Part shown: piece by piece, positions 4,184 to 56,999 of the stretch | Layout: each line of letters starts with the position of its first letter | How positions within the stretch are numbered: the first letter of the stretch is position 1 | Source of the DNA: Candidatus Woesearchaeota archaeon | Lineage (GTDB): Archaea; Nanobdellota; Nanobdellia; Woesearchaeales; UBA10216 | DNA: 64,000 bases | Direction of reading: 5' to 3' | NCBI GenBank assembly: GCA_016192945.1 | Contig: JACPTE010000024.1 | Coordinates: 16,001-80,000 of the forward strand | Program-made: the position numbers and the translations under genes | The notes under the pieces: model-generated | What the model was told of the DNA's origin: nothing | The model's input: the letters and a program-made list of their open reading frames with translations, nothing else | Database searches by the model: none

Positions 4184-5713
4184 TCACTCATATTCTATGG
4201 TGGCTGGGGGCTTCTGTGTTATGTCATATAATACCCTGTTGACTCCCTTGACGTTCTTTACTATGTCTGATGATGCCCTTTCCAGTAGCGTGTATGGCAG
4301 TTTTGCCCAGTCCGCTGTCATTGCATCGCTGCTTGTGACTGCCCTTAGGGCTATTATGTAGCTGTATGTCCTCTCATCTCCCATGACTCCCACTGCCTTT
4401 ACAGGAAGTAGTGCTGCAAGTGCCTGCCATGTTTTTTTGTAGAATCCGTGCTTCTTTAGCTGCTCTATGAATATGAAGTCAGCCTCTCTCAGGATTTTGA
4501 GCTTTTCATTTGTGACCTCTCCTATCACCCTTATTGCAAGACCTGGCCCTGGGAATGGGTGGCGCTCAAGCAGCTCTTCACTTATGCCCATAGACCTCCC
4601 TAAAGCCCTGACTTCGTCCTTGTAGAGGTCTCGTAGCGGCTCTACTGTTTTGAGCTTCATTTTTTCAGGCAGCCCGCCTACATTGTGGTGGGTCTTTATC
4701 AACGATGCTGTTTTTGATGGCTGTGCGCTTTCTATCCTGTCTGGATAGATTGTCCCCTGTCCCAGGAATTCTATGTCTCCGTGCCTCTTCTTGAGTTCGG
4801 CAGCCTTCCTTTCAAACACGTCTATGAATGTGTGCCCTATTACTTTCCTTTTCTGCTCTGGCTCTACAACTCCCTTCAGCCTTTTGAGGAACAATTCTGA
4901 GGCATCTATGAAATGGAAGTTCTCAAATTCCAGCTCATGGAATGTCTTCCTGACCTGCTCTGCCTCATTTTTCCTGAGCAGCCCGTTGTCAACAAACACG
5001 AGATGTATATTCCTGGTTGCCTTTCTTATGATGGTTGCTGCGACAAGGCTGTCAACTCCCCCGCTTACTGCCATTATTACGCCCATGCTGCCAATCCTGC
5101 TTTTTGCCTCTTCAGCCAGCCTGGTGCCAATGCCCTTTGCAGAATAGTTCCTTTTTGCCTTGCATATCCTGAGGAAATTGTCAAGAATCCTGATTCCATT
5201 CAGTGTATGCTGGACTTCTGGATGGAACTGGACCCCGAATATCTTTGCCGGTTCATTTGCATAAGCTGCTACTTTGCAGTCTGGCGTTGATGCCAGCAGC
5301 TCAAATCCTGGCTTCAGCTCAGTGACAGAATCCCCGTGGCTCATCCATACCTGCTCTTTCCTCTTCATGCCTTTCAGCAGTTGGGATGGCTTTTTTATGC
5401 TCATCATCTCCCTGCCGTATTCCTTGCTGCTTGAAACAACCCTGCTTCCAGTAAGGTGGGCAACCAGCTGGTGGCCGTAGCAAATCCCAAGAACAGGTAT
5501 TCCGAGCTTCAGTACACCTGGGCTTATTGTGGGAGCGTCCTTCTCATAAACGCTTCTTGGCCCGCCTGACAGGATAATGCCTTCAGGCATCATTGACTTT
5601 ATGCTTTCAACAGGCTCTGTCCAGTGGACAAGCTCTGAGTAAACGCCAAGCTGCCTTATCCTCCGGGCTATCAGATGCGATACCTGGGATCCAAAGTCAA
5701 TGATGAGAATCAT
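4184..5713 (-). CDS. guaA: GMP synthase (glutamine-hydrolysing), GATase + ATP-PPase domains
   Basis: MILIIDFGSQ...GICYGHQ (class I GATase) and SGGVDSLVAATI PP-loop. Probable start at internal Met. Overlaps the upstream HEPN gene by 4 nt. Confidence 0.93.
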   Translation of the reverse strand: MILIIDFGSQVSHLIARRIRQLGVYSELVHWTEPVESIKSMMPEGIILSGGPRSVYEKDAPTISPGVLKLGIPVLGICYGHQLVAHLTGSRVVSSSKEYGREMMSIKKPSQLLKGMKRKEQVWMSHGDSVTELKPGFELLASTPDCKVAAYANEPAKIFGVQFHPEVQHTLNGIRILDNFLRICKAKRNYSAKGIGTRLAEEAKSRIGSMGVIMAVSGGVDSLVAATIIRKATRNIHLVFVDNGLLRKNEAEQVRKTFHELEFENFHFIDASELFLKRLKGVVEPEQKRKVIGHTFIDVFERKAAELKKRHGDIEFLGQGTIYPDRIESAQPSKTASLIKTHHNVGGLPEKMKLKTVEPLRDLYKDEVRALGRSMGISEELLERHPFPGPGLAIRVIGEVTNEKLKILREADFIFIEQLKKHGFYKKTWQALAALLPVKAVGVMGDERTYSYIIALRAVTSSDAMTADWAKLPYTLLERASSDIVKNVKGVNRVLYDITQKPPATIEYE

Positions 5714-6108
5714 TCTTGAAGCACGCTTTTCATCCATTTATAAAATCTTTCTGCATTTAATATGGCTTCATCAGCTTCCGATTTGCTGATAAGAATTGGC
5801 TCATATTCAGCCCTGCTCTTCAGGCTTAAAAGGTTCAAAAGCTGCCTGTTCTTCTTGCTCACATCGTCTAGTTTTATCTCATTCAGGAGCCTTGCAACAT
5901 CATCATGCCTGATTCCTCTATGTCTTATACCCTTGAATTTTACGGTAAGAGCATCAGCAGAATTAATACCGCAATGCACAGCAGCTATTACGCAGACATT
6001 CCAATGGCTTTTCTGATATGCGTCGTTCATGGATTCAAAGCATTCATCTGCCTTCTTGATGTAATTCTTGTAAAGGCTGCTAGCAACATTTACCGTGTCA
6101 GTTCCCAT
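5710..6108 (-). CDS. HEPN-domain protein (toxin-like partner of the adjacent nucleotidyltransferase)
   Basis: 132 aa all-helical. RHRGIRH (R-x4-6-H-like) motif and C-terminal SRAEYE segment typical of MNT-associated HEPN. 19 nt overlap with the MNT gene. Confidence 0.7.
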   Translation of the reverse strand: MGTDTVNVASSLYKNYIKKADECFESMNDAYQKSHWNVCVIAAVHCGINSADALTVKFKGIRHRGIRHDDVARLLNEIKLDDVSKKNRQLLNLLSLKSRAEYEPILISKSEADEAILNAERFYKWMKSVLQE

Positions 6109-42789: not shown

Positions 42790-43683
42790 AAGCGCCATTC
42801 TTACTGGTATGCCGTTGTGAGCCTGCTGGAAGTATATGCTTTGCCTTGCCTCGTCCAGCCCGGGGTTTATCTCATCCACTCTTGGAAGCGGGTGTAGTAT
42901 TTTCATTTCAGGCTTTGCATGCCTCAGGAATGATGTATCAAGCTTGTAGAATCCCTTTACCTTTGCATAGTCCTCTGAGTTGAGGAATCTTTCCTTTTGG
43001 ATTCTGGTTACATAAAGTATGTCCAGTTCCCTGCTTACCTTCGTCAGCTCTTCCTCCTCAACATAGCTTATTCCAGAGGATTCCATCTCCTTGATGTATT
43101 TCTCAGGCAATTTGAGGGATGGGGGTGATATGAAGTAGAACTTCGGGCTGAAATGGGAGAGTGCGTGCGTGAGGCTGTGGACTGTTCTTCCGAATTTCAG
43201 GTCTCCCAGGAATCCTATGTTGAGCCCCTGCAGGGTGCCTTTTGTCTGCATTATCGTGAACAGGTCAACAAATGTCTGGGTAGGGTGCTCGTTTGTGCCG
43301 TCACCTGCGTTTATTATGGGGTTTGATGCTGCTTCGGCAGCTTTACTGACAGAGCCTGCTTCAGGATGCCTCATCACAATAACATCACAGTATCCATCAA
43401 CAATCCTTATTGTGTCGTGTGTTGTCTCCCCCTTTGAAATGGATGTATTGTCAGGCTCTGAAAATCCTATCACAGAGCCTCCAAGCCTGTGCATTGCAGC
43501 CTCAAAGCTCAGTCTTGTCCTGGTTGATGGCTCAAAGAATAGTGATGCCATTATCCTGCCTTTCAGAAGCCCTGAGTATTTGCTTCTGTCAGCCTGTATT
43601 TTGGCTGCAACATCAATTATGTGCAATAGTTCCTGCTTGGAGAAGTCCCTTATTGATATTATATCCCTGTTTTGGAAGCCCAT
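42763..43683 (-). CDS. pyrB: Aspartate carbamoyltransferase catalytic subunit
   Basis: STRTR and HPLP motifs. No pyrI follows. Confidence 0.93.
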   Translation of the reverse strand: MGFQNRDIISIRDFSKQELLHIIDVAAKIQADRSKYSGLLKGRIMASLFFEPSTRTRLSFEAAMHRLGGSVIGFSEPDNTSISKGETTHDTIRIVDGYCDVIVMRHPEAGSVSKAAEAASNPIINAGDGTNEHPTQTFVDLFTIMQTKGTLQGLNIGFLGDLKFGRTVHSLTHALSHFSPKFYFISPPSLKLPEKYIKEMESSGISYVEEEELTKVSRELDILYVTRIQKERFLNSEDYAKVKGFYKLDTSFLRHAKPEMKILHPLPRVDEINPGLDEARQSIYFQQAHNGIPVRMALLGLIIGGL

Positions 43684-43768
43684 TAAAAAAACAAGAGTAT
43701 CAAGCTTAGTTTATAAAGTTTATTTATTTTTTGTGGTGTTTGAAAAATCTGCCTATAATTTTATAAAC

Positions 43769-46768
43769 ATGAGCACCCAGTTAACGCTGATGGTCGGCAG
43801 CAGGCTTCACAATTTGTTTTTCATTGTTTGTGTCTCAATAATTGGCTTTCTGATGTTTTTTTTCATAAAGGTTTCATTCACAGGGTATGGTGTCTATGAG
43901 GAAAACCTGAAGACGTGGGATTTCAGCCAGCCAGCAGATTACTCATTTGATGCCTTATTGATAAATTTCAGCAGCGGGGTGAGGCTGCAGTCTGTCACGA
44001 TTATGACCCCTGCAACAGGCGTAACTACAAACAGGACTTCAGTCACAGCTGCCTACAAGATTGATGATGACAATGAAAGCGAGCTGGTAACTGGCAAGGT
44101 AACGGCTCTTGATGATTTATATGTCAACAATGGGAAAGATGACCTGCTTAATGTCTCTTTTGGCAGCCTGCTCAATAATGGAGACAATCTGTCGTTCTAT
44201 ATTGACCCCTCAAAGGCAGGCAAGATTCGGATTTGCCTGTCTGGAAGCTGCGCCTCCCCTGGATACGGCGAGGCCTCATTCAGCAAGTCAACTGGCTGGG
44301 TTTCAATAAGGCTTTCCAGCCTTCCTTCAGGCTCAAGCTCGTTCTTGATTGACACTGATTCAAGTGTCAAGTTTGATTATATCTATTCAAACTACACAGA
44401 CAGCTACAATTATTCTGTTCCAGGCAGTTCGTACACTGGCAGTGGAGAGATTGAGACAGCTGACTTTTCGCCATCAGGGGTTTCAATGTGGAATGTCTTC
44501 AATGCCTATGGAACCATGAACCAGCAAACATTGGCTTACAGCTACTCAACTGACTCAGGCGTGTCCTGGGTTTCAATAAGCAATGGCTCCAACATGTCAC
44601 TGCCTGCTTCGTCAGGGAAAATCAGGCTTAAGGCAGCACTCTCCAGCGATGGGACGTCAACGCCTGTGTTAAGCTCCATGAGCATATCATACTCCAGGCT
44701 GTTGTGCAGCGAGGATTGGAGGGCTGTTTATGGCACCTGCCTTGTGAATGACTCAAGATTGAAGACGTACAGTGATGCTAATAATTGCAGGACTTCCGAT
44801 GGCCTGCCTTCTGACAACAGTACTTATGTGCAGTGCGACTACTGCACGCCATCATGGGCTGAGCTGAACAGGAGCTGCCTTGTCAATGATACGCTTTTTT
44901 CATATTTCAGCGACACAAACAGCTGCTTTCCATTTACAGGGCTGGCTTCAGACAATAACCCCCCGGCAAACAAGAGTTATGCCTGCGATTATTGCACCCC
45001 GCATATAGCTTTCTTCAACACATCATGCCGGGCTGACGATACTCTGGTCATGTATGCGAACGACAGCAATGGATGTTATTCATTTACAGGGATTGCATCT
45101 GATAATGTGCCTGGCAATGTGACTTTAGGATGCGACTACTGCACGCCATCATGGGCATGCAGCAGCTATTCTTCATGCAGCATTGCTGGAAGGAGGGCAT
45201 GCACTGGTGCGGTGGATGTAAAGTCGTGCTATCAGCTTACAGGGCTTTTGGCAGATTCCTATCAGGGTAACTATTCTGAGTTTGACTCGCAGTGCTTTAA
45301 TGAAGCTGCATCTTTCATGGTTGCAGGGTTTGACATCGCCCCAAGAAGCGCTGAATCCGGGAAAAACATAACAGTGGTTGTCAAAATTTCGGACATGCCC
45401 AAGGTTAGCTCTGCATTTTTGGAAGCCTATGGCTCTGGGCGCATGAAAGCCCTTTCTGTCCAGGGAATGGCTGGCAACAGCACATTCAGGTTCATAATCC
45501 CGACCAGTTCCCTCAATAAGGGCATTTACACTATGAGAGTTAATGCATCAGACTATTACAACAACTCTGCATTGTTTGATATTGATGCCTTTGCAGTTTC
45601 AGGCTCATTAAGTTCTCTCATGAAGAGCGCTGTTGAAGGGAAGAATTTAATTTCAAACGACGCTGAAAGAAAGGTGAGCACGTCAATAAATTTCAGCAAA
45701 AGCGTGAATGGCACTGTTTTTGTAGCGACCTATAATGAAAGCACGAAGAACGAAACGCCTGCCTCCAAAAAGCAGCTCCATAAGTATGTTGAGATAATTC
45801 CTGACGAGTCAATAAGGCCCAGCATATTGGCGGTAACAATAAGGATAAACTACTCTGATGATGAGCTGTCTGTCTGGAATATTGATGCCAGCAGCCTGGC
45901 AATATACTATTACAATGAGTCCTCTTCAGTTTGGGAAAGGCAGGAATCATCTGTCAACTTGACAGGCCATTATGTAGAGGCAGTTGTAGCCCACGCAAGC
46001 CTCTTTGGGGTTTTTGGTGACCCTGCAAATGCGCCTATCGCAAGCGCTCCAAATGGTGATGGCAGCAGCGGCTCAGATGGAGGGGGCGCTGATGGATGCC
46101 AATCTATCCAAGAATGCCCTGGCTCTTCAGGTTCAGGGCCTGTGGCTAATGAAACCAACCAAAGCATAGGAAGCAGGAAGGGAGAAACTGAAAAGCTCAT
46201 TCCTGACTCTCAAAGAATCCTGGCCATTTCAGGCAACACCACTGCAAGAGCCAATGCCTCAGGATTGGCTGGAAAGGGAGCTGGCTGCGATTACAGCATG
46301 GTTATTGACCTCCCTTCAAATATTTCAATGGTAAGGGAAAATTACTTTATTGGAAGGTTCTCAAGCTCAGGCCAGTGCAGCATTGATGAGGTTGAGATGG
46401 TGCTCAAGGGGCCTGTAACTGATATTGTGTCAATAAATTACAGTACGGGCTCTTCAGGCTTCTTGAGGCTGAATTCAAAGCAGGCAAACGCCAATGCTCT
46501 CAGGGGGCTGCCTGTTGGCCTGATTGTCAACTCACGGGATATCCCGAAGAGGACTTATACAGGCAGCTTAATAGTCAGGGGAATTGTCAACAGGAGTGTT
46601 GTGTCTGAAGAATCCCTGCCCTTGTCTGTTGAGATCGGCGAATCCAGGGCTGGCAGCTCATTTGAAGTCCCGCCTGCTGCATGGATTGTTGCAGCAGGAT
46701 GCATAGTCAGCATCATAAGCCTGCTGCTCCTTCGGAGAATTGCCAAAAGGAAAAAGAAAGGAAGATAG
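43769..46768 (+). CDS. Large (~1000 aa) cysteine-rich-repeat cell-surface protein with N-terminal signal/anchor and C-terminal TM anchor plus basic tail
   Basis: Upstream part of the 1199 aa ORF overlaps pyrB antisense. Start at MSTQLT after the divergent promoter. Four ~45 aa repeats containing CDYCTP(S/H)WA...SC...DDTL..Y.D.N.C..FTG.ASDN. Many N-x-S/T sequons. C-terminus AAWIVAAGCIVSIISLLLLRRIAKRKKKGR. Confidence 0.8.
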   Translation: MSTQLTLMVGSRLHNLFFIVCVSIIGFLMFFFIKVSFTGYGVYEENLKTWDFSQPADYSFDALLINFSSGVRLQSVTIMTPATGVTTNRTSVTAAYKIDDDNESELVTGKVTALDDLYVNNGKDDLLNVSFGSLLNNGDNLSFYIDPSKAGKIRICLSGSCASPGYGEASFSKSTGWVSIRLSSLPSGSSSFLIDTDSSVKFDYIYSNYTDSYNYSVPGSSYTGSGEIETADFSPSGVSMWNVFNAYGTMNQQTLAYSYSTDSGVSWVSISNGSNMSLPASSGKIRLKAALSSDGTSTPVLSSMSISYSRLLCSEDWRAVYGTCLVNDSRLKTYSDANNCRTSDGLPSDNSTYVQCDYCTPSWAELNRSCLVNDTLFSYFSDTNSCFPFTGLASDNNPPANKSYACDYCTPHIAFFNTSCRADDTLVMYANDSNGCYSFTGIASDNVPGNVTLGCDYCTPSWACSSYSSCSIAGRRACTGAVDVKSCYQLTGLLADSYQGNYSEFDSQCFNEAASFMVAGFDIAPRSAESGKNITVVVKISDMPKVSSAFLEAYGSGRMKALSVQGMAGNSTFRFIIPTSSLNKGIYTMRVNASDYYNNSALFDIDAFAVSGSLSSLMKSAVEGKNLISNDAERKVSTSINFSKSVNGTVFVATYNESTKNETPASKKQLHKYVEIIPDESIRPSILAVTIRINYSDDELSVWNIDASSLAIYYYNESSSVWERQESSVNLTGHYVEAVVAHASLFGVFGDPANAPIASAPNGDGSSGSDGGGADGCQSIQECPGSSGSGPVANETNQSIGSRKGETEKLIPDSQRILAISGNTTARANASGLAGKGAGCDYSMVIDLPSNISMVRENYFIGRFSSSGQCSIDEVEMVLKGPVTDIVSINYSTGSSGFLRLNSKQANANALRGLPVGLIVNSRDIPKRTYTGSLIVRGIVNRSVVSEESLPLSVEIGESRAGSSFEVPPAAWIVAAGCIVSIISLLLLRRIAKRKKKGR

Positions 46769-47968
46769 TCAATCCTGCTTTTTTTTATTGATGCCTGATG
46801 CTACTTCCTGGTACGCCTCCCTGAACGGCATTCCCTGCTTTACCAGCTTTGCAGCCTCCTCAGCGGTATAAAGCTCAGAAGTCATAGCTTCCCTGCATCT
46901 TTTCTCATTTACTTTCAAGCCATTGATTATCTGTGCCATTATATCTGCTGATGACCCTGCCATCTCTATGCCATTGAACAAAGGCTCTTTCGTGAGCTTA
47001 AAGTCTCCATTATAGCCTGAAGGGAGATTAAGGATAATGTTGTTTACAGCATCGCAATAGCTCTTCATCATGCCTGCCTTAGCCCGCGCAATTTCAAGCA
47101 CGTCAGGGTTTGCCTTATGGGGCATTATGGAGCTGCCCATTGAGAATTCCTTCGGAAGCTCAAAGTAGCCGAATTCAGATGACGTGAAAAGCCATAAGTC
47201 TGTTGACAGCTTGTTTATGTCAAGCATAAGATTGTTCAGGGAATTTAATACCATGAGCTCAAACTTACCGCGGCTGTTCTGGACGTAAAGCGTGTTGTTC
47301 TGGACCTTGTCAAAGCCGAGAAGCTTTTGGGTCAGGTTCCTGTCAATGTTTAGGACCGGCACGCCATATCCCGCAGCGCTGCCCAATGGATTCTGGTTTA
47401 TCAGCTTCTTTGATGAATTTATCAGAGCAAGGTCATCCCGGAATGATTCTGAAAAAGCCTCTGCCCATTTTCCAACAGCATAGGGCATCGCCTTGCGGAG
47501 GTGGGTGTATCCTGGAATTGGAATTTTGCTGTTCTTGCTGCTGAACTTGTTTAGCTCTTCAATCAATCTGCTGACAGCAGAAATAATTTCCTCAAGCTCG
47601 TGCCTTTCGTAAAGCCTCAAAGCAACAATTATCTGGTCGTTCCTTGAGCGGCCTGTGTGGATTTTCTTGCCTAGCTTCCCTAGCTTTTTTGTAAGATGGT
47701 TTTCAATAGCAGTATGGCAGTCCTCCTGCTCTACAGTGATTTTAAACTCGCCTTTGCTGTCCAGGAGCATTATCTCCTCAAGCCCCGCAATCAGCTGTGA
47801 CAATTCAGTTTTATTCAGTATGCCTGCCTTGTGCAGTGCTTTGGCATGGGCAATGCTTGCAATGCAGTCATATTTGACCAGCTTCTGGTCTATTATGTTC
47901 TCGTTGCCAACTGTGAACTTCTCTATTGCCTTGTCAATGTTGAAATCTTTCTTTTGCCAGAGCTTCAT
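46769..47968 (-). CDS. argH: Argininosuccinate lyase
   Basis: Fumarate-lyase signature GSSIMPHKANPD. Confidence 0.92.
   Translation of the reverse strand: MKLWQKKDFNIDKAIEKFTVGNENIIDQKLVKYDCIASIAHAKALHKAGILNKTELSQLIAGLEEIMLLDSKGEFKITVEQEDCHTAIENHLTKKLGKLGKKIHTGRSRNDQIIVALRLYERHELEEIISAVSRLIEELNKFSSKNSKIPIPGYTHLRKAMPYAVGKWAEAFSESFRDDLALINSSKKLINQNPLGSAAGYGVPVLNIDRNLTQKLLGFDKVQNNTLYVQNSRGKFELMVLNSLNNLMLDINKLSTDLWLFTSSEFGYFELPKEFSMGSSIMPHKANPDVLEIARAKAGMMKSYCDAVNNIILNLPSGYNGDFKLTKEPLFNGIEMAGSSADIMAQIINGLKVNEKRCREAMTSELYTAEEAAKLVKQGMPFREAYQEVASGINKKKQD
46779..46788 (+). terminator. Oligo-T tract immediately after the surface-protein stop codon
   Basis: gcttttttttatt read directly, in the convergent gap before argH. 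Confidence 0.45.
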
Positions 47969-47991: not shown

Positions 47992-49263
47992 TTAATAATA
48001 CTTCTTAATTTTATCAGATTTAGTTTTTACCTGATTGGCGAGCTTCATCTGGAAGCTCCACAGCTCAATGAATCCTGCACTCGCATTCTGGTTGAAAGAG
48101 TAGTCTTTCATGAATGTAACAAGGTTCTTGTCATAAAGCGCATTTTCAGAGTAAATAGCAACAGCTTCTGCCTTGCCCTTGTAAAGCTTTACAGTGACTG
48201 AGCCATTAACCTTTTCATTCAGCTTATTGCAGAAAATGTTTAGTTCATCTATCAACGGCTCAAGCCAGAATCCCCCATAGCAAAGATATGCCCATTTAGT
48301 GTCCACAATGCTCTTGAACTCGTTCTCCTGCCTTGTGCAGACATATTTCTCAATTACCTTGTGCGCCTCCAATATGATGGCTGCTGCCGGCATTTCGTAA
48401 ATGTCACGGTTCTTAAGACCAACAACCCTGTCTTCAATATGATAGCTTATCCCAATGCCGTGCTTTGCTCCTATCTTTGCCAATAACAGGATAATATCAG
48501 AAAGCTTCATTATTTTCCCTTCAACAGCAACAGGAAGTCCTTTCTCAAAATCAATCTTTATTAATTCGGGCTTGTCTGGAGCATTCTCAGGGGTGTTGCA
48601 TACAGCGAGTATTTTTTCAGCAGGAGGGATAAGACTGGGATCCTCAATTTCACCTGATTCTGCACTTGAGCCCCACATATTGTCATCATAGCTGTAAGGC
48701 TTGTCCTTGGTTGCTTTTACGGGAATGTTATTTTTCTTGGCATATTCAATCTCCTCATCCCTTCCCATGCTCCATTCACGGACTGGAGCGATGACTTTTA
48801 TCTTTGGACTGATGGTTATGGCAGTTGCTTCAATCCTCACCTGGTCATTTCCTTTTCCTGTGCATCCGTGTGCAATCGCATCTGCGCCTTCCTTTTCAGC
48901 TATTTCAACAGCAATCTTTGCAAGCAATGGCCTGCCCATTGCAGTTGCAAGATGATAAGCGCCCTGATATGAGGCATTGGCTTTTATGCCCTTTGCAACA
49001 TAATTATTAGCAAACTCGTCCTTGGCATCGACTACAAAAGCCTTTTTTGCACCAAGCTTTAATGCCTTTTTCCGGATTTCCTCCAAATCGTCACTATGCT
49101 GCCCAAGATCAACTGTGAGCGCAATTACCTCTGCATTATATTCCTCCTGAATCCACTTAAGCATTACAGAAGTGTCCAATCCGCCTGAATAAAGCAAAAC
49201 TACTTTCTTGACCTGTCCTTTTTCAGCTTCATAGCTTGCAACTTTGGAATATTCTTTTTTCAT
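47992..49263 (-). CDS. argG: Argininosuccinate synthase
   Basis: LLYSGGLDTSV PP-loop. ArgG length. Confidence 0.93.
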   Translation of the reverse strand: MKKEYSKVASYEAEKGQVKKVVLLYSGGLDTSVMLKWIQEEYNAEVIALTVDLGQHSDDLEEIRKKALKLGAKKAFVVDAKDEFANNYVAKGIKANASYQGAYHLATAMGRPLLAKIAVEIAEKEGADAIAHGCTGKGNDQVRIEATAITISPKIKVIAPVREWSMGRDEEIEYAKKNNIPVKATKDKPYSYDDNMWGSSAESGEIEDPSLIPPAEKILAVCNTPENAPDKPELIKIDFEKGLPVAVEGKIMKLSDIILLLAKIGAKHGIGISYHIEDRVVGLKNRDIYEMPAAAIILEAHKVIEKYVCTRQENEFKSIVDTKWAYLCYGGFWLEPLIDELNIFCNKLNEKVNGSVTVKLYKGKAEAVAIYSENALYDKNLVTFMKDYSFNQNASAGFIELWSFQMKLANQVKTKSDKIKKYY

Positions 49264-49274
49264 TTTTCCTCCAC

Positions 49275-49826
49275 TTATTTGAGCGTCATTATCATGGGTA
49301 TCTCATCACACAGTCCGTATTCCATGAGCCTACAGTCAGCGCAATCCTGCTGGTATTTTGAAGCAGGGAAATTTTGTGCTGTAACAAAGCCCCATCTTTC
49401 AAAAATAGGAACATTTTCTCTTTTCGTCAAGGTAAGCATCTGGGAGTGCCCCCTTGCCAAGGCCTCTTCTGCAACTGCCCTGACAAGCAATCCGCCAATG
49501 CCTCTTTTCTGGTATTGCCCATCAACAGCAAGAGTCCTCATTTCCGCAATATCTGCATATTCAACCAATGAATTGCATCCTATTATCCTGGGATTAGCAG
49601 CTACATAAAAGCCGTTCTGTAAAGTAACCTCGATCACCCTTTGCTCAGTTATTGGAAGTAGCATTCCTTTTGCCTCCAAAAAGCCGTTTGAAGCTATTGA
49701 AAACTTGTACTTGTCTGCCCAAGCCTTGATTTGAGGAGCATCAGCTAAGATAGCCTGCCTTACAATGCATGCAGCTGAAAAATCCGTTCCTCCACCGACT
49801 AATGCAAGGTCTTCTATCGTTGCCAT
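49275..49826 (-). CDS. GNAT-family N-acetyltransferase (candidate short N-acetylglutamate synthase or regulator) with C-terminal Cys motif
   Basis: Motif A TLAVDGQYQKRGIGGLLV. C-terminal CADCRLMEYGLCDE. The annotated long ORF's N-terminus (MSYLRQLCLICPVLVN) is really the translated conserved operator DNA. Confidence 0.7.
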   Translation of the reverse strand: MATIEDLALVGGGTDFSAACIVRQAILADAPQIKAWADKYKFSIASNGFLEAKGMLLPITEQRVIEVTLQNGFYVAANPRIIGCNSLVEYADIAEMRTLAVDGQYQKRGIGGLLVRAVAEEALARGHSQMLTLTKRENVPIFERWGFVTAQNFPASKYQQDCADCRLMEYGLCDEIPMIMTLK

Positions 49827-49846: not shown

Positions 49847-49908
49847 GATTTATAAGCCTATTGACCAAAACAGGACAAATAAGACATAGTTGTCTTAAAT
49901 AGGACATC
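49847..49908 (-). promoter_or_regulatory. Arg-cluster promoter 1: TATA (cttataaatc) plus conserved upstream ~50-bp element
   Basis: Element ggtcaatagg...gtcctgttttggtc with GACA/TGTC half-sites. Same element at 51543-51605 and 55775-55832, each abutting a TATA box. Confidence 0.55.
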
Positions 49909-50157: not shown

Positions 50158-51042
50158 TCATTTTTCCTCCAGCAATTTCAGCATTATAGCCTTCTGCACA
50201 TGAAGCCTGTTCTCAGCCTGCTCAAAAACAATCGAGTTCTGGCTGTCTATCACTTCATCAGTTATCTCGAAGCCCCTATGGGCGGGGAGACAATGCATTA
50301 TCAAGGCATTCTCCGGAACAAGCCCCCTGTTCAGCTGATAAGGAGAAAAAACATTGTGCCTTTTCTCAGCTTCCTTTTCCTGGCCAAGAGAAACCCAGGT
50401 GTCTGTATAAACAATATCTGCCCCTTCAACAGCTTCCTTTGGATTGTTTGTGAAACTCAGAAGGCCTGTTTTTTTTGCAGATTCCATTATTCCCATATTT
50501 GGCTCATAGCCCTTTGGCGTTGCAACAGCAATCCTTATGCCTGTTTTTGTGCAGGCAGCGATAAGCGAATTGCAGACATTGTTGCCATCTCCGATAAATG
50601 CCAGCTTTGATTTGAGGCCTTTCTTTTCCTTGATAGTCATTACATCAGCCAATGCCTGGCATGGGTGCTCAAAGTCAGAAAGCCCGTTTATAACAGGAAC
50701 ACCTGCAACCTTGGCCATCTTTTCTACATCGCTATGTGAATAGACACGAACCATTATTATATCTGCATATCCTCCTATGCATTTTACCTCATCAAAAATA
50801 TTGCCAACTGCAAAGTTGCTGTCCTTCCAGTCAAGGAATGCGGCATGACCTCCAAGTTGTGTCATCCCAATTTCAAATGAAATCCTTGTCCTTGTTGAGG
50901 TTTTCTGGAAAATCATCACAAGGCTTTTGCCTTTCAAGGCTCCAGAATAATTCTCAGGACTCTTTTTGAGCTTTTCAGCTAATGAAATGATTTCATTTAC
51001 CTCTTTATTATCCAAATCCTTGATTGCAAGCAGATGATTCAT
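50158..51042 (-). CDS. argF: Ornithine carbamoyltransferase
   Basis: STRTR carbamoyl-phosphate motif and HCLPAHRG. Confidence 0.92.
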   Translation of the reverse strand: MNHLLAIKDLDNKEVNEIISLAEKLKKSPENYSGALKGKSLVMIFQKTSTRTRISFEIGMTQLGGHAAFLDWKDSNFAVGNIFDEVKCIGGYADIIMVRVYSHSDVEKMAKVAGVPVINGLSDFEHPCQALADVMTIKEKKGLKSKLAFIGDGNNVCNSLIAACTKTGIRIAVATPKGYEPNMGIMESAKKTGLLSFTNNPKEAVEGADIVYTDTWVSLGQEKEAEKRHNVFSPYQLNRGLVPENALIMHCLPAHRGFEITDEVIDSQNSIVFEQAENRLHVQKAIMLKLLEEK

Positions 51043-51051
51043 TTTTCCTGT

Positions 51052-51531
51052 TCAATTGTTTTCAATACTGCAAGATATTAGTTCAGTTTTACAGTTTGGA
51101 TAGCGCGAGCATTTAATGTCATGTGCAAGCATCATTACGTTTTCGGGTATGCTTTCCCTGTCAACAACCTCAAGCTTCAACTTCTTGAAAAACCCTGGCT
51201 TTTCAGTGAATGCTATAAGTTTCTGTACTCCCATTTCCTTTGCTTCCTGCATTGCCATCTCTACCAGCCTTGTCCCTATGCCTTTACCCTGATGCTTCTC
51301 TTTCACCGCCAGACTCCTGAGTTCAGCATAGCCATCCAGAACTATATGCAGGGCTATGCATCCCACAATTTCTCTCCCTATCTTGGCTATGAAGTATTCC
51401 CTTATGCTGCTATACACTTCGCTGAAAGGCTTTGGGGAAACTCCCTTGCCTGTAAAGCTGTTTATAAGGAAATTTATCTCCCCTGCATTGGATAGCTTCG
51501 CTTTTCCAAAAGTCACTTCAGGATTTTCCAT
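51052..51531 (-). CDS. GNAT-family N-acetyltransferase (short NAGS-like)
   Basis: Motif A YAELRSLAVKEKHQGKGIGTRLVEMA. Start MENPEV about 27 nt after the TATA. Paralog of 56538-56999. Confidence 0.72.
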   Translation of the reverse strand: MENPEVTFGKAKLSNAGEINFLINSFTGKGVSPKPFSEVYSSIREYFIAKIGREIVGCIALHIVLDGYAELRSLAVKEKHQGKGIGTRLVEMAMQEAKEMGVQKLIAFTEKPGFFKKLKLEVVDRESIPENVMMLAHDIKCSRYPNCKTELISCSIENN

Positions 51532-51542
51532 GGAAGGTAGTA

Positions 51543-51605
51543 AAGTTAGCTTTCTTATAAGGTTATTGACCAAAACCAGACTAATTAGACATAAATGTCC
51601 TAAAT
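51543..51605 (-). promoter_or_regulatory. Arg-cluster promoter 2: TATA (cttataag) plus conserved upstream element
   Basis: ttattgaccaaaaccagactaattagacataaatgtcctaaataagacaaaacc. Contains the GACATAAATGTC palindrome. Confidence 0.55.
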
Positions 51606-51634
51606 AAGACAAAACCTATTCTCCCTTCTTTGCT

Positions 51635-52810
51635 TTAGCTCCTGTAGCTTGCATTTATGCCAATGTACTTTTCTGTGAGGTCGCAGGTATATGCCGTGTG
51701 CTCTCCGTTTCCCTGTCCCATAACCGCTTTTATTTCTATGGATTTGTGTTTTAGATAATTCTCAGCATTGTTTTCATTGAATTTAAGGGGGTTGCCATTT
51801 TTGAAAACACATATTTTTCCCAGGAATATGGAAATTCCTTTTTCATTGGCACCTGATCCGCTTGCTCCTATGGCCGCAATTATACGCCCCCAATTGGCAT
51901 CATTGCCGTAAATGGCTGTCTTGACCAGATTTGAGTTTGCTATCCTCATTGAAATCTTCTTGGCTGCAATGCCACTTTTTGCCCCTGCAACCTTTACTGT
52001 TATCAGCTTTGTAGAGCCTTCCCCGTCTGCTACGATTTTTTTTGCAAGTGCCAGGCAAACATTTCCCAGTGCCAAAGAGAAGTTTTTTGCTTCTCTCATT
52101 GCCTTTAGCTCCTTATTTCCTGCCTCTCCACTGGACATTATGGCAGCACAGTCATTTGTGCTCATATCCCCATCAACGGTAATTGAGTTAAAAGTCGCAT
52201 CGCAGCAGCTTTTCCATAATTTCTCAAGCAATGCCTGGCTTATCGCCGCATCGGTAATGACGATTGCCAGCATTGTTGCCATATTGGGCGCAATCATGCC
52301 GCTTCCCTTTGCAATGCCTGCTATGGTGACTTTCTTTTTTGAAATCCAAATCTTTTTTAAGACAATCTTTTTCCTGGTGTCGGTGGTCATTATCGCTTCT
52401 GCAGCATTTCGAAGCCCTGCACTGCCTAGCTCAAAAACGGCTTTTTTAACTCCCCTTTTTATCAGCTGGACAGGAAGCCTTTTACCTATTATTCCTGTTG
52501 ACATGACCAAAATTTCATTCAGGCCTGTTTTAAGCTCTTTTGCAGCATGAGCTTGAATAGCCAGGGCATCTTTCAGTCCTTGTTTTCCTGTGCAGGCGTT
52601 TGCAACCCCGCTGTTTACTATGATTGCTTTTTTCTTTTTTTCCCTCATGGCTCTGATTGAAATTTTTACCGGGGCTGCTTTTATTTTGTTTGTAGTAAAT
52701 AGCACTGATGTTTTACATGGATTTTCTGAATAGATTATTGCAAAATCTTTTTTCCGGTTTTTCTTTATTCCGCAGCCGACTCCGGCAGCCAGGAATCCCT
52801 TGGGCATCAT
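51635..52810 (-). CDS. argJ: Bifunctional ornithine acetyltransferase / N-acetylglutamate synthase
   Basis: KGSGMIAPNMATML (ATML self-cleavage site with Thr nucleophile). Confidence 0.92.
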   Translation of the reverse strand: MMPKGFLAAGVGCGIKKNRKKDFAIIYSENPCKTSVLFTTNKIKAAPVKISIRAMREKKKKAIIVNSGVANACTGKQGLKDALAIQAHAAKELKTGLNEILVMSTGIIGKRLPVQLIKRGVKKAVFELGSAGLRNAAEAIMTTDTRKKIVLKKIWISKKKVTIAGIAKGSGMIAPNMATMLAIVITDAAISQALLEKLWKSCCDATFNSITVDGDMSTNDCAAIMSSGEAGNKELKAMREAKNFSLALGNVCLALAKKIVADGEGSTKLITVKVAGAKSGIAAKKISMRIANSNLVKTAIYGNDANWGRIIAAIGASGSGANEKGISIFLGKICVFKNGNPLKFNENNAENYLKHKSIEIKAVMGQGNGEHTAYTCDLTEKYIGINASYRS

Positions 52811-53727
52811 AGTAGTCCCTCGCTTTCTTTTATTCCGAACATAATATTCATGTTCTGGACGGCCTGTCCACTTGCTCCTTTTAACAGGTTATCAAGTGCC
52901 GATATTATCACTATCCTGTTGTTGTGGTCTGCTTCAAAGCCCCCTATGATGCAATAATTGGTGTTTCGGGCATCATGGAGGGTGGGTAGCCTGTCAACAA
53001 CCTTGACGAATTGTTCCTTCTCATAATGCTTTATGAATTCCGTCTTAACATCCCCGGCATCAACAGCCTCGTTCATTATGAAGTGCGAAGTGCAGAGTAT
53101 TCCCCTGAATAATGGAAGCACATGGGGTGTGAATGAAACTTTTTTCCCTAACGCTTTTTCAATCTCTTTTATGTGCTCGTGATTTGTGAGCTGATAGGGC
53201 ATGACATTTTCCTTCAGGTTTTCAGGTGAATTTCTTTGGCTCGGCGTTTTTCCTGCTCCGCTATATCCTGACTTGCAGTCAAATATGATGTTTTTGAGGT
53301 TATTGTTGCCCAGCATCGGCAGAGCAGAAAGTATTGCGGCTGTCGCGTAACAGCCCGGATTTGCTACAAATCTGGTCCTGCTTATTTTCTCACGGTTGAG
53401 TTCAGGAAGTCCATAAACAGCTTCGCTGCCCAAGCGGTAATCTGGGCTTAAGTCAATTATACGCGCCGTTACTTTCGGAACAATTTTCTTTGCCATTCCC
53501 TCCCGTACTGCGAGGAACACTATGTCAGCGATTTTATTTATTTTATCCATGCCGTAGTTTGTGAATGAAATATCACAGTCATATTCGGGATATATATCAC
53601 TGACTTTTTTCCCGTATTTGCTTTCTGAGTTGGCAGCCACTATCTCTACTTTATTGTGTCTGCTCAGTATTTTTATAAGTTCAAATCCTGTATAGCCTGA
53701 CGCGCCTATTATTGCAGCTTTAATCAT
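52807..53727 (-). CDS. argC: N-acetyl-gamma-glutamyl-phosphate reductase
   Basis: IGASGYTGFELIKIL Rossmann. Catalytic Cys in PGCYAT. Confidence 0.92.
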   Translation of the reverse strand: MIKAAIIGASGYTGFELIKILSRHNKVEIVAANSESKYGKKVSDIYPEYDCDISFTNYGMDKINKIADIVFLAVREGMAKKIVPKVTARIIDLSPDYRLGSEAVYGLPELNREKISRTRFVANPGCYATAAILSALPMLGNNNLKNIIFDCKSGYSGAGKTPSQRNSPENLKENVMPYQLTNHEHIKEIEKALGKKVSFTPHVLPLFRGILCTSHFIMNEAVDAGDVKTEFIKHYEKEQFVKVVDRLPTLHDARNTNYCIIGGFEADHNNRIVIISALDNLLKGASGQAVQNMNIMFGIKESEGLL

Positions 53728-54881
53728 TTTAGCACTCCATGCAGGATATCCATTCCTTCAAGAATTTCCGCCTCTGTTATTGTGAGTGATGGAAGCATTC
53801 TCAGCGTTTTCTCAGTGCATTTGTTTATCAAAAGTCCTTTCTTGATGCATTTTTCAGCAACATTTTCGGCATCAACAATGATGTCCATTCCAGCCATAAG
53901 ACCTTTTCCCCTAAACTGGGAGATCAAATCACTCTTGGATTTTAGTTCTGCAAGATTTTTTAGGATGATCGCTCCTTTGTTGTTTGCTTTTTCCACCAGC
54001 CCGTTTTTTTCCATATACGCTATTGTAGCCAAGGCTGCTGTGCATGCAAGCGGATTTCCTCCAAAAGTGCTTCCGTGGTCTCCTTTGCCGAATGAGTCAG
54101 CGATTTCTTCTGCAGCGATTGTCACGCCTATGGGCACGCCATTGGCCAGGCCTTTTGCAGAAGTGACTATGTCTGGCTTTATCTTGCTGTGCTGATAGCA
54201 AAAGTACTTGCCTGTCCTTCCATTTCCAGTCTGCACCTCATCAGCTATAAGGAGAATTCCTTTTTCGTCACAAATTTCTCTTACAGCCTTAAGGTATGAA
54301 TTATGCGGCACTATGACTCCAGCTTCACCCTGTATTGGCTCTACAATGAATGCCGCTGTATCTTCGGTAACTGCTTTACGCAGAGCTTCCGAATCATTAT
54401 ATGGTATGTGCATGAACCCGGGAACCAAAGGCTTAAACGGCTCAGTGTATTTGGCTTTTGAAGTGGCTGACAATGCACCAAATGTGCGCCCGTGAAATCC
54501 GCCATCGGCTGCTATTATGCCTGGCTTTCCTGTGTGCTTTCTTGCAAGCTTTATTGCTGTTTCATTCGCCTCTGCTCCTGAATTGGAGAAGAAACTCTTA
54601 TCAAGGCTTGAAAGCAGGGCTAGCTTCTGGGAGAGCTTTATTTGAGGTTCTGTGTAGTACAAGTTTGTTGTAGTAATTATTTTTCGGATTTGCTCAATAA
54701 TAGCGGAATTGACTTCTTCATTGCAATACCCAACGCTGCAGGTTCCTAGAGCTCCTGCAAGGTCAAGGTAGCTGTTTCCATCAATGTCTAATGCGCGGCA
54801 TCCTATACCTCGCTCTATTAGAAGGCTTATCCTATTATATGTCTGCATCAGACTTTTATTTGATTTTTGCAAATAAGTCAT
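53724..54881 (-). CDS. argD: Acetylornithine aminotransferase (class III PLP)
   Basis: LIADEVQTGNGRTGKYF. PLP-lysine region TSAKGLANG. Confidence 0.9.
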   Translation of the reverse strand: MTYLQKSNKSLMQTYNRISLLIERGIGCRALDIDGNSYLDLAGALGTCSVGYCNEEVNSAIIEQIRKIITTTNLYYTEPQIKLSQKLALLSSLDKSFFSNSGAEANETAIKLARKHTGKPGIIAADGGFHGRTFGALSATSKAKYTEPFKPLVPGFMHIPYNDSEALRKAVTEDTAAFIVEPIQGEAGVIVPHNSYLKAVREICDEKGILLIADEVQTGNGRTGKYFCYQHSKIKPDIVTSAKGLANGVPIGVTIAAEEIADSFGKGDHGSTFGGNPLACTAALATIAYMEKNGLVEKANNKGAIILKNLAELKSKSDLISQFRGKGLMAGMDIIVDAENVAEKCIKKGLLINKCTEKTLRMLPSLTITEAEILEGMDILHGVLK

Positions 54882-54903: not shown

Positions 54904-55734
54904 TCATAGCCTGCTGGCAGGTAAAAAGGCAGTTCTTCTGGTGGTGTGGTTCTTTATGACTATTGTCCCACATACTGATTGGTCAGTAAGGCTTTGCAGC
55001 ATTCCAGACGGGTCAACTATGAAAACGGACGGAGCCCTGTCCATCTTGCTTAGCATTTCAATAATCACTTTAACTTTCAGAAGCATGCCGCCATTCAGTG
55101 CATTTTTTTTGACTAGTTCAGGATAGCCCGATTCTGGGTACAGCTTTTCAATCAGGTTTCCTTCAGCATCCCTGACTCCTCCTTGCTCAGTCACCAGTAT
55201 GAATTTTTTTGGATTAAGCGCCTTCACAAGCTCCTTTGATGCCACGTCTGCATTGATATTGAATTGCTGTCCTGACTTATCAATGCCAATTGGGCAGATT
55301 ACCGGCAATTTTCCATCAATTAATGCGGTTTTTATTGCCTCCAGGTTTACTTTCTTGACATGCCCAACAAATCCGAGGTCCTTGCCATTTATTTTCCAAT
55401 GCTTTGTGCATTCGAAAATATCATATAACACTGTGACGTTCCCGCCTTTTTTCGCTACTTCTTCAGCCAATAAAATGCAGCTCTTTTTGAGCTGTTCAAT
55501 CACTATGCGCAGTTGTTTTTTCCCAGTTACCCTAAGACCCTGTACCTTCTTTGAACTCAGATTTTTCTTTTTCAGCTTTTCATCAATCTGAGGCCCGGCT
55601 CCGCATACTACTATTGAACATAGCCCAAGGCTCTGCGCATAGCTTAAGGCTTCGCCTAGCTCTTGAAGCTGGTTGATTATAACCTTCCCTCCAATCTTTA
55701 TCAATGCAAGTTCCGGATTATTCGAGTCGTTCAT
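54904..55734 (-). CDS. argB: Acetylglutamate kinase
   Basis: LIKIGGKV amino-acid-kinase N-terminus. Start at internal MNDSNN. The longer ORF upstream is translated operator DNA. Confidence 0.9.
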   Translation of the reverse strand: MNDSNNPELALIKIGGKVIINQLQELGEALSYAQSLGLCSIVVCGAGPQIDEKLKKKNLSSKKVQGLRVTGKKQLRIVIEQLKKSCILLAEEVAKKGGNVTVLYDIFECTKHWKINGKDLGFVGHVKKVNLEAIKTALIDGKLPVICPIGIDKSGQQFNINADVASKELVKALNPKKFILVTEQGGVRDAEGNLIEKLYPESGYPELVKKNALNGGMLLKVKVIIEMLSKMDRAPSVFIVDPSGMLQSLTDQSVCGTIVIKNHTTRRTAFLPASRL

Positions 55735-55774
55735 TGTCAAGCTGGTTGTTGATTGAAGTATTATTCTGACATCG

Positions 55775-55832
55775 CTTATAATCCTATTGACCAAAACAGG
55801 ACAAAATAAACAAAAATGTCCAAAACAAAACA
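55775..55832 (-). promoter_or_regulatory. Arg-cluster promoter 3: TATA (cttataat) plus conserved upstream element, shared divergent region with the regulator gene
   Basis: cctattgaccaaaacaggacaaaataaacaaaaatgtccaaaacaaaaca. Confidence 0.55.
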
Positions 55833-55835
55833 TTT

Positions 55836-55900
55836 TAATAGTTAATAGTTAATCGTTTGTAGTTTGCAGTATGAACTACTAACTACTTACCACTTACCTA
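55836..55900. repeat. Short direct and inverted repeats (TAGTTAA x2 / AACTAC x2 / TTACC x2) immediately upstream of the HTH-ACT regulator gene
   Basis: Read directly: tagttaatagttaat...gaactactaactacttaccacttacc. Confidence 0.4.
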
Positions 55901-55906
55901 TTTAGG

Positions 55907-56530
55907 ATGAACATCACAAAGGCTGTTGAAAAGCATGTTTCAGGAAGGCCAAGCATCAAGGACTGCCTCAAGAGGAAGCTGATAAACTACTCTGCGCTCT
56001 CAAGGCAGATTGGCTCGGAGCTTGGAATAAGCAATTTCGATGCAATCCTTATAGCCTGCAGGAGATATGCTGAAAAGCTCAAGTCAGAGGAGGTTCTGGA
56101 AAAAAGAATCATAGACATCCTGAAGAAAAGCAGGATAGGTGTCAAGAACAGGATTGTTGCTGTTGTGATTGAAAAAACGATATATTATAACAGCCTTCTG
56201 GAATTGGAGAAGGAGATAAGGAAAAAAGATGAAACTCTCCATATCATGGAAGGGGCAAATGCGATTACTCTTGTAACAAGCTCGGACTACACTGATAATA
56301 TAAGGAAGCTGTTCAAGGGTCAGATAATAAAGATAAGCAAGGACCTCGCTGAAATAAATGTGAAGAGCCCAAGGGAACTGGAGAATACGCCTGGAGTCCT
56401 CTCACAGATGTGCTCCCTTTTTGCTGAGCGGGGGATAAACATTGTTGAAAGCATGAGCTGCTGGACTGACACGCTGTTCGTAATAAATGAAAGCGACATC
56501 GCAAAAGTGATGGATGCATTGAAGTTCTGA
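55907..56530 (+). CDS. Putative amino-acid-responsive transcription regulator: N-terminal HTH + C-terminal ACT domain
   Basis: HTH-like LSRQIGSELGISNFDAILIACRRY. C-terminal ACT-like SPRELENTPGVLSQMCSLFAERGINIVESMS. Divergent from argB. Confidence 0.65.
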   Translation: MNITKAVEKHVSGRPSIKDCLKRKLINYSALSRQIGSELGISNFDAILIACRRYAEKLKSEEVLEKRIIDILKKSRIGVKNRIVAVVIEKTIYYNSLLELEKEIRKKDETLHIMEGANAITLVTSSDYTDNIRKLFKGQIIKISKDLAEINVKSPRELENTPGVLSQMCSLFAERGINIVESMSCWTDTLFVINESDIAKVMDALKF

Positions 56531-56537
56531 TTGAGAG

Positions 56538-56999
56538 TCAGTATTTTATGACATAGTCTATTTCATCAAGGTTTATAACGATTCCTGTGCATCCTGAAAT
56601 GCAGCTTTTTTTCAGGCTTTCAGGAAGCTCATTATCCTTTGCCACTCTGAACTTGAATTTCCTGAAGAAATCAGGGCTTTTTGTAAAGCCAACTGCATGC
56701 CTTGCATCAAGGAGCTTTGCCTCGTACAGGGCAAGCTCAACGAGCCTTGTCCCTATTCCCTTTCCTCGGAATCCCTGGTTGACAGCAAGGCTGCGGAGCT
56801 CTGCATAATCAGAGTCAATTATGTCAACTGCTATAACGCCAACTATCCTGCCGCTGTCCTTCGCAACAAAGAAGCTCCTTATTTCATGCAGGATGTCATC
56901 AATGCTTCTGGAGAGTATGCGTGCATTGTCAATCAGCAGCTTGATTTCTGCAGCATCAGAAACGCGGGCCTTGCAATAGACTATGTTCGGGCTTGGCAT
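56538..56999 (-). CDS. GNAT-family N-acetyltransferase, paralog of 51052-51531
   Basis: YAELRSLAVNQGFRGKGIGTRLVELALYEAK nearly matches the GNAT2 motif A. Confidence 0.72.
   Translation of the reverse strand: MPSPNIVYCKARVSDAAEIKLLIDNARILSRSIDDILHEIRSFFVAKDSGRIVGVIAVDIIDSDYAELRSLAVNQGFRGKGIGTRLVELALYEAKLLDARHAVGFTKSPDFFRKFKFRVAKDNELPESLKKSCISGCTGIVINLDEIDYVIKY

Follow-up and report, generated by a model that had tools for sequence, protein, structure and literature searches.

The DNA analysed here, which we call the window, is a stretch of 64,000 nucleotides from a contig of a Candidatus Woesearchaeota archaeon. At 55907-56530 on the plus strand (stop codon included) it contains an open reading frame (ORF) of 207 amino acids, whose product joins an N-terminal helical domain resembling Pfam DUF7523 to a C-terminal tandem ACT module. 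An earlier sequence-only reading had proposed this ORF as a regulator gene; the ORF itself was confirmed by Pfam matches and homologs, the interval named at the time (starting at 55836) taking in non-coding DNA on the 5′ side. The divergence from argB was confirmed as well. The argB gene (acetylglutamate kinase, 276 amino acids; 54904-55734, minus strand; Pfam AA_kinase and NCBIfam acetylglutamate kinase) is the first gene of an argB-argD-argC-argJ operon, and its true start is the ATG at 55734 (MNDSNNPELALIKIGGK), not the position 55833 at which a mechanically called ORF of 309 amino acids begins. The two genes are separated by a 172-bp intergenic region that carries, as had been stated, the third copy of an arg operator. 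The longer argB ORF (54904-55833, minus strand) has 99 extra nucleotides at its 5′ end that cross the operator and both TATA boxes, so that an automatic annotation choosing it would hide the intergenic control region.

The operator is an element of about 50 bp that was found three times in the window with constant orientation; its 19-mer TATTGACCAAAACAGGACA has 3 matches where 0.02 were expected. Each copy consists of a left box (TTGACCAAAACAGGACA or a variant) and, 29 bp on, a right box that fits TGTY-N8-RACA. The operator motif has 6 matches in the window against 0.62 expected, all of them within three arg promoters. In copy 3, box 1 (TTGACCAAAACAGGACA, 55787-55803) lies 4 bp from the TATA box on the argB side and is a direct repeat of box 2 at the 29-bp spacing, while box 2 (TGTCCAAAACAAAACA, 55817-55832), a TGTY-N8-RACA site, adjoins the TATA box of the 207-residue protein's gene. 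The latter, putative TATA box (TTTTAATA, 55833-55840, plus strand) aligns with TTTATATA/TTTAAATA in 71 loci of relatives. The putative TATA box of the argB-argD-argC-argJ operon (minus strand) reads CTTATAAT on the plus strand at 55775-55782. With TATA boxes on both flanks, copy 3 fills the space between two divergent promoters' TATA elements. Copy 1 (49861-49906; box 1 TTGACCAAAACAGGACA and the palindrome TGTCTTAAATAGGACA at 49891) lies upstream of an operon of a GNAT gene resembling N-acetylglutamate synthase (NAGS), argG and argH, and copy 2 (51566-51611; TTGACCAAAACCAGACT and the palindrome TGTCCTAAATAAGACA at 51596) upstream of a second NAGS-like GNAT gene and the OTC gene. On the side of the arg genes, all three copies are bordered by CTTATAAG/TTTATAAG, a sequence read as the putative TATA box of a minus-strand promoter. 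This box is separated from the ATG by about 25 nt for the two GNAT genes, which suggests leaderless mRNAs, and by about 40 nt for argB. In relatives, the regulator gene has its TATA box 23-29 nt ahead of the ATG, again suggesting a leaderless mRNA.

Conservation of the operator and its neighbourhood

Relatives of the protein were found in large numbers. A word-indexed search returned 608 homologs, mostly full length and many of them 55-60% identical; an exhaustive search gave cluster representatives mostly of 200-225 amino acids, 1158 of them at E<1e-3 and 491 at E<1e-10; and a scan of species-representative genomes gave 198 relatives. By label, the source organisms are Woesearchaeota/Nanoarchaeota, with a few bins that are evidently mislabelled. 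The Woesearchaeota-type gene and operator were also seen on contigs labelled Nomurabacteria or Omnitrophica (L029, LBZW01000031.1; L074, MHFY01000102.1) and in many Third Party Annotation (TPA) bins labelled 'uncultured Methanosarcinales'; such bacterial and 'Methanosarcinales' labels are probably binning or labelling errors.

The 25-mer AAACAAAAATGTCCAAAACAAAACA, with up to 5 mismatches, was present in 77 of 89 loci of relatives and was perfect in at least 12 other species. Apart from one weak exception, every match lay on the plus strand, ahead of the transcription unit that contains the gene. When 71 loci were aligned on the core, a near-invariant ATGTCYnAAACAAAACA was followed at once by TTTAAATA or TTTATATA. 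A degenerate 17-mer (ATGTCYNAAAYARRACA) matched exactly in 62 of 88 loci, nearly always once per locus, on the plus strand and upstream of the transcription unit. Box 2 of copy 3 is the most conserved DNA in the neighbourhood of the whole family; in nearly all of some 85 Woesearchaeota/Nanoarchaeota loci the palindrome adjoins the TATA box of the gene itself. The operator is kept where arg genes are absent from the flanks (L005), and also where a gene or a leader lies between promoter and regulator gene. Other intergenic matches with up to 2 mismatches numbered 28, and all but 3 lay just ahead of arg genes on the minus strand (OTC, argG, argC and GNATs); the consensus of these arg-promoter sites is TGTCYnrAATwrGACA, and several are perfect palindromes (TGTCTAAT-ATTAGACA). 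A general promoter type was considered for the element and rejected, since a locus of 12-16 kb has about one copy and the element is confined to the regulator gene and arg promoters. In one locus (L003:4995-5769, identical to L011) a two-gene toxin-antitoxin-like insertion, consisting of a DUF3368 PIN-like gene and a gene for 94 amino acids, has split the bidirectional arg/regulator promoter. The operator is duplicated on both sides of that insertion (4954-4983 and 5927-5956), and the arg operon and the regulator gene each keep a copy.

The same motif accompanies much more distant members of the family. We collected 80 loci of family members from metagenomes that are 27-56% identical to the window protein, 79 of which could be tested. 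TGTY-N8-RACA occurred within -200 to +30 of the gene start in 73 of the 79. There were 76 matches in the 18 kb upstream of the gene and 28 in the other 441 kb of these loci, and shuffles gave a mean of 1.2 and a maximum of 5 matches (200 shuffles). Expressed as density, the palindrome occurred 4.2 times per kb upstream; elsewhere in the loci the figure was 0.06 per kb, and non-ORF DNA outside the upstream region had 0.36 per kb. In a large soil clade, which NCBI labels as Thermoplasmata archaeon and whose proteins are named 'ACT domain-containing protein' or 'hypothetical', TGTCAAATATCGGACA lies at -26/-27 and the gene is divergent from argG-argH. A member with 33% identity, labelled Methanobacteriota, is divergent from argG and keeps box 2 and the TATA box. 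Four loci (L089, L090, L129 and L166) have no arg gene in the 4-8 kb of flank examined, yet each has a perfect palindrome at the start of the gene itself (TGTTACAT-ATGTAACA in L089; CATGTC-N8-GACATG, overlapping the ATG, in L090). The motif thus travels with the gene, as expected if the protein binds it.

For gene neighbourhoods, ORFs were called and proteins clustered in 84 non-redundant Woesearchaeota/Nanoarchaeota loci. Of these, 67 have arginine-related genes on the opposite strand upstream, namely argB, argC, argD, argG, argH, argJ, OTC, carA/carB, arginyl-tRNA synthetase (argS) and NAGS-like GNATs; an arginine-related gene occurs anywhere downstream in only 4. The adjacent gene and the gene order vary among loci, with argG the commonest neighbour and OTC, argB, argS or a GNAT in others. 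Linkage that is conserved despite such shuffling argues for function rather than inherited synteny, and it is likewise divergent in Thermoplasmata relatives at 33-35% identity. In six loci (L049, L062, L019, L034, L057 and L084) argS is the divergent or near-divergent partner and in four (L026, L028, L036 and L046) carA/carB, and the putative regulon therefore extends beyond the biosynthetic arg genes. No ArgR or AhrC homolog was detected in the window or in any locus by tblastn (E>4, with approximate query sequences), and the regulator protein itself had no ArgR match in Pfam or NCBIfam, in agreement with the earlier statement that the window has no ArgR homolog. No other non-enzyme gene was conserved in the neighbourhood of the 84 loci.

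Several further features of these loci were recorded. The ribA gene is convergent and downstream in 54 of the 84, with ribD and ribB nearby. An APH/fructosamine-kinase-like gene lies directly upstream on the same strand in 19 of the 84 and apparently shares the operator promoter. In 25 related loci (L031:2636-2694, L037:7764-7822, L069:7774-7832 and 22 others), the ACT-protein gene is preceded by a structured RNA of 58 nt (UGAGCGAUAUGUCUU...GAGUACC...AAGGCAUAGGCGCUCCA) that sits on the downstream side of the operator promoter, some 25 nt past its TATA box. It has two helices in which 9 of 12 pairs show compensatory changes, and GAGUACC is invariant. A covariance-model search found these 25 copies and none in the window, and no Rfam family matched; the RNA is a candidate for a new riboswitch, leader or small RNA. 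Behind many copies come a GC hairpin and a T-run, and often a conserved ORF of 32 amino acids (MQKDLSEWIDV...; MQKDLSEWIDVS..VEI...), which stands between the RNA or promoter and the gene for the ACT protein or the APH-like kinase (L031:~2741-2839, L005:5032-5130, L035, L069 and L073). In several loci the ACT gene has a strong Shine-Dalgarno-like GTTGGGGGTTGGTAA.

The arginine cluster of the window lies on the minus strand and comprises argH (46769-47968), argG (47992-49263) and the first NAGS-like GNAT gene (about 49275-49826), which heads the operator-controlled GNAT-argG-argH operon; OTC (50158-51042) and the second NAGS-like GNAT gene (51052-51531), which heads the operator-controlled operon with OTC; and argJ (bifunctional, 51635-52810), argC (52807-53727) and argD (53724-54881), followed by argB. 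A third NAGS-like GNAT gene (56538-56999, minus strand, 153 amino acids) converges on the regulator gene and was identified by Pfam and as an amino-acid N-acetyltransferase by NCBIfam (PRK07757/PRK07922); in the closest subclade it is kept beside the regulator gene. The three short GNATs of this one cluster are paralogs and look like short N-acetylglutamate synthases (PRK07757/PRK07922) and like the GNAT part of ArgH-A fusions. An ORF of 1199 amino acids beside the cluster (43169-46768, plus strand) had no Pfam match at E<1e-3.

Domains of the protein

The sequence-only reading had described an N-terminal helix-turn-helix (HTH) and a C-terminal ACT fold. The ACT part holds by Pfam and by fold, and is in fact a tandem ACT module of the aspartokinase type (residues 76-207; 56132-56527, plus strand); the HTH is proposed from the predicted fold alone. 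Pfam matches above the cut-off of 27 bits were ACT (29.9 bits), ACT_7 (27.1 bits) and ACT_AHAS_ss (30.7 bits), covering residues 144-206. In NCBIfam, residues 82-205 align to the C-terminal regulatory part of aspartate kinase, at aspartokinase positions 269-401, and by its predicted fold the C-terminal module has the structure of an aspartokinase regulatory domain. It has the beta-alpha-beta-beta-alpha-beta fold of the ACT superfamily and the conserved glycine of the beta1-alpha1 ligand loop; in the second ACT unit this is the invariant Gly163 (ENTPGV), to which Asn178 is added. Structure matches of the module include Thr-, Lys- and Arg-binding proteins. The name 'aspartokinase', which some sources give to this protein, was rejected because the kinase domain is absent: the protein has 207 amino acids and no match to AA_kinase (PF00696).

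The N-terminal domain (residues 1-75; 55907-56131, plus strand), a putative HTH, is predicted to form a four-helix fold with helices at 3-12, 15-22, 28-39 and 44-74, the fourth being 30 residues long. Residues 9-79 match Pfam DUF7523 at 25.2 bits in the window protein, below the gathering score of 27 bits; 83 of 110 family members match it at E<1e-3, the best with an E-value of 8.6e-13. Across 110 diverse members, near-invariant residues are N27, S29, R33 and R53 in the N-terminal domain and G163 and N178 in the second ACT unit, and the highest conservation of the family is at the first four. To our eyes, the pattern LINYSALsRqIgsELGIsnfDAILIACRRY resembles a classic HTH with a long recognition helix. 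Fold matches of the domain also include eS17 and FF domains, and searches of the PDB with two N-terminal profiles gave nothing useful and no proven DNA-binding homolog. When variants of the putative recognition helix (ACRR, ALRR and AARR) were compared by eye with the TGTC and TGTT half-sites, no clear code was apparent.

Proposed mechanism and alternatives

We consider it probable that the protein regulates transcription of the arginine regulon, senses an amino acid and controls its own gene, as a functional analogue of bacterial ArgR built from different parts, with DNA binding, ligand and sign of regulation all deduced rather than observed. This assignment draws on the palindrome in the gene's own promoter, which is conserved across orthologs, and on divergent target operons that carry the same operator. 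The earlier proposal of an arginine-sensing, autoregulated regulator of the local arg regulon is thereby strongly supported, at the level of comparative sequence evidence, by operator conservation and divergent linkage. The most likely ligand is arginine, and the credible autoregulatory site is predicted to be operator copy 3 itself. The architecture and the family are new; the job is a familiar one.

In the mechanism that we propose, the tandem ACT module (residues 76-207) would dimerise or oligomerise and bind an effector, most likely L-arginine. The long helix 44-74 would couple the ACT pair to two N-terminal HTH-like domains, and the conserved surface of N27, S29, R33 and R53 would read the half-sites of TGTC-N8-GACA. 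Since the two boxes are 29 bp apart in the roughly 50 bp between the divergent TATA boxes (55775-55782 and 55833-55840), one complex could control both promoters, and like two-box operators would act at the other two arg promoters (49861-49906 and 51566-51611). The effector-bound protein would block access of TBP and TFB and so repress the arg operons and its own gene. Such blocking is suggested because each box adjoins the TFB-recognition element (BRE) and TATA box, and effector-dependent repression is favoured because the boxes adjoin the TATA box in Woesearchaeota and, on our reading, contain it in the Thermoplasmata clade.

Some observations weigh against this interpretation. There is no arg gene within 8 kb in 17 of the 84 loci, so the role of the family may be broader than arginine, and distant members occur in non-arg contexts. 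The ligand is guessed from regulon content alone. Archaeal activators also use sites next to or just upstream of BRE/TATA, so that the protein may activate rather than repress. The search for other regulators was confined to the window and the loci.

In the main rival reading, the protein belongs to the arginine regulon without regulating it: a detached allosteric subunit, like aspartokinase beta or the small subunit of acetohydroxyacid synthase (AHAS), it would confer feedback by an amino acid on NAGK, on a short NAGS or on argininosuccinate synthase, with a different transcription factor binding the palindrome. The aspartokinase-like regulatory fold (and the name that some sources derive from it), the membership of argB and aspartokinase in the same amino-acid-kinase superfamily, the NAGS-like GNATs that flank the gene in the window subclade and the want of a proven DNA-binding homolog for the N-terminal domain all point this way. 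However, the palindrome stays with the gene in loci that have no arg gene in the examined flanks, no enzyme is a constant partner (many linked clusters, among them L001, L007 and L012, have no argB), conservation peaks in the N-terminal helical domain at N27, S29, R33 and R53, and no other regulator gene is conserved nearby. We therefore regard a detached subunit as unlikely.

To the same low degree, we allow for a DNA-binding regulator of the arg regulon that responds to another effector (ornithine, citrulline, N-acetylglutamate, aspartate, lysine or the general amino-acid pool) or acts as a ligand-free activator, in the manner of Sulfolobus LysM at lysW. Many different amino acids are ligands of ACT and aspartokinase-type modules, the structure matches of this one include Thr-, Lys- and Arg-binding proteins, and some family members are found in non-arg contexts; for an activator, the boxes adjoin or precede BRE/TATA, a position that archaeal activators also use. 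Against another effector, regulon content is arginine-specific, including carAB and arginyl-tRNA synthetase as divergent partner, and biosynthetic regulons usually sense their end product. Much less probable than either is that the N-terminal domain binds RNA or another protein, as a post-transcriptional regulator or co-regulator, and that the conserved DNA is a composite promoter for general factors: a 16-bp palindrome, present about once per locus and confined to the regulator gene and arg promoters, is typical of dimeric DNA-binding proteins, and neither the window nor most of the loci have the structured RNA.

A last possibility concerns the short repeats TAGTTAA/AACTAC/TTACC between operator and start codon, which the sequence-only reading had taken for the gene's own repeat array and autoregulatory element. 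The repeats exist: a heptad TTAATAG is repeated 3.3 times at 55835-55857, overlapping the TATA box, and an imperfect inverted repeat of 15 nt is 87% complementary. They are weak, however. Tandem Repeats Finder (TRF) reports only the heptad there, with a score of 39, and the window has 18 arrays of like score. A strain with 99% identity (L008) has the same array unchanged, and relatives with 74%, 72% and 63% protein identity (L007, L001 and L003) do not have it. A comparison by eye with these three relatives showed a 36-nt insertion (55871-55906, plus strand) flanked by a duplication of ATGAAC. In the relatives 26-41 nt separate the TATA box from ATGAACATAA; the homologous ATGAAC of the window, at 55871, reads ATG AAC TAC TAA, an ORF of three codons, and the real ATGAACATC follows 36 nt later. 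Because the two ATGAAC copies are 36 nt apart, the AACTACT/TACCACT repeats lie within the insertion. Judged from this alignment, ATG AAC TAC TAA appears to be a vestigial start at the place where the relatives have their real leaderless start, and the regulator gene here probably has a leader of 36-40 nt that carries a minimal upstream ORF. The array is regarded as a lineage-specific slippage or duplication that at most adds a short leader with a vestigial ORF, and the TAGTTAA/AACTACT repeats were rejected as a control element on their lack of conservation and ordinary TRF score. That they form the protein's own autoregulatory site is the least probable of the alternatives: they overlap the region from the TATA box to the transcription start site, where bound protein would repress, but they are not conserved beyond the 99%-identical strain, have half of their array within the insertion with its vestigial start codon and bear no likeness to the family-wide TGTC-N8-GACA motif.

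Relation to known systems and significance

To our knowledge, archaea generally have no ArgR and the control of arginine in archaea is poorly understood. The only well-studied archaeal case known to us is the Lrp-type LysM in the LysW pathway of Sulfolobales. A literature search on DUF7523, on archaeal arginine regulators that combine HTH and ACT domains and on arginine biosynthesis in Woesearchaeota found nothing relevant. Pfam DUF7523, to which the N-terminal region is matched (below the cut-off in the window protein), is an uncharacterised archaeal family with no assigned function.

The proposed regulator is like bacterial ArgR/AhrC in its presumed arginine-responsive autoregulation and in its paired, AT-centred palindromic boxes at arg operons, carAB and its own gene. 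In contrast, there is no homology: Pfam and NCBIfam gave no winged-helix Arg_repressor or hexamerisation domain in the window protein, and tblastn found no match. A tandem ACT module stands in place of the ArgR hexamerisation domain, the box is a 16-bp TGTC-N8-GACA rather than an 18-bp ARG box, and the promoters are of the archaeal TATA/BRE type. The Lrp/AsnC proteins with a RAM domain (Sulfolobus LysM, Grp) are parallel in architecture, with an N-terminal HTH, which in the window protein is putative, and a C-terminal ACT-like, oligomerising beta-alpha-beta-beta-alpha-beta sensor, and are archaeal amino-acid-responsive regulators, often autoregulated, that bind near BRE/TATA. They differ in having one RAM domain where the window protein has two aspartokinase-type ACT units, and the four-helix N-terminal fold is a different one. 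Membership in the ArgR or Lrp families was rejected, as Pfam gave no ArgR domains and, at E up to 10, neither HTH_AsnC nor AsnC_trans_reg.

The sensor is closest to the aspartokinase beta subunit and stand-alone ACT_7 proteins (5yei_D, 3mah, 1zhv and 1zvp). Unlike aspartokinase beta and ACT_7 proteins, the window protein combines the absence of a kinase domain with an extra N-terminal helical domain and a gene context of arginine rather than the aspartate family. An analogy at the level of fold can also be drawn with CASTOR1, the mammalian cytosolic arginine sensor for mTORC1, which in contrast contains four ACT domains, lacks a DNA-binding domain and signals by protein-protein interaction.

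It is an even question, in our judgement, whether the protein is the founding example of an unrecognised, widespread family of archaeal transcription factors (Woesearchaeota/Nanoarchaeota and Thermoplasmata) that combines a novel helical DNA-binding domain with a double ACT module. Such a family would supply the long-missing arginine repressor where ArgR is absent, with TGTC-N8-GACA as a 16-bp 'archaeal ARG box', a bidirectional-promoter mechanism and a sister lineage in which a leader RNA has been added. The analysis yields a family of candidate regulators (over 1000 cluster representatives), a predicted operator, a 70-bp probe and a predicted regulon of argB, argC, argD, argG, argH, argJ, OTC, carAB, argS, NAGS-like GNATs and the regulator gene itself. 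For archaea without ArgR, the protein is the best candidate yet for an arginine regulator. If that reading is true, it would correct the names 'aspartokinase', 'ACT domain-containing protein' and 'hypothetical', would give DUF7523 a function and would be a third case of an aspartokinase-type ACT pair serving as a sensor, after aspartokinase itself and CASTOR1, here outside the enzyme. It would also be one of few glimpses into how uncultured DPANN archaea regulate transcription.

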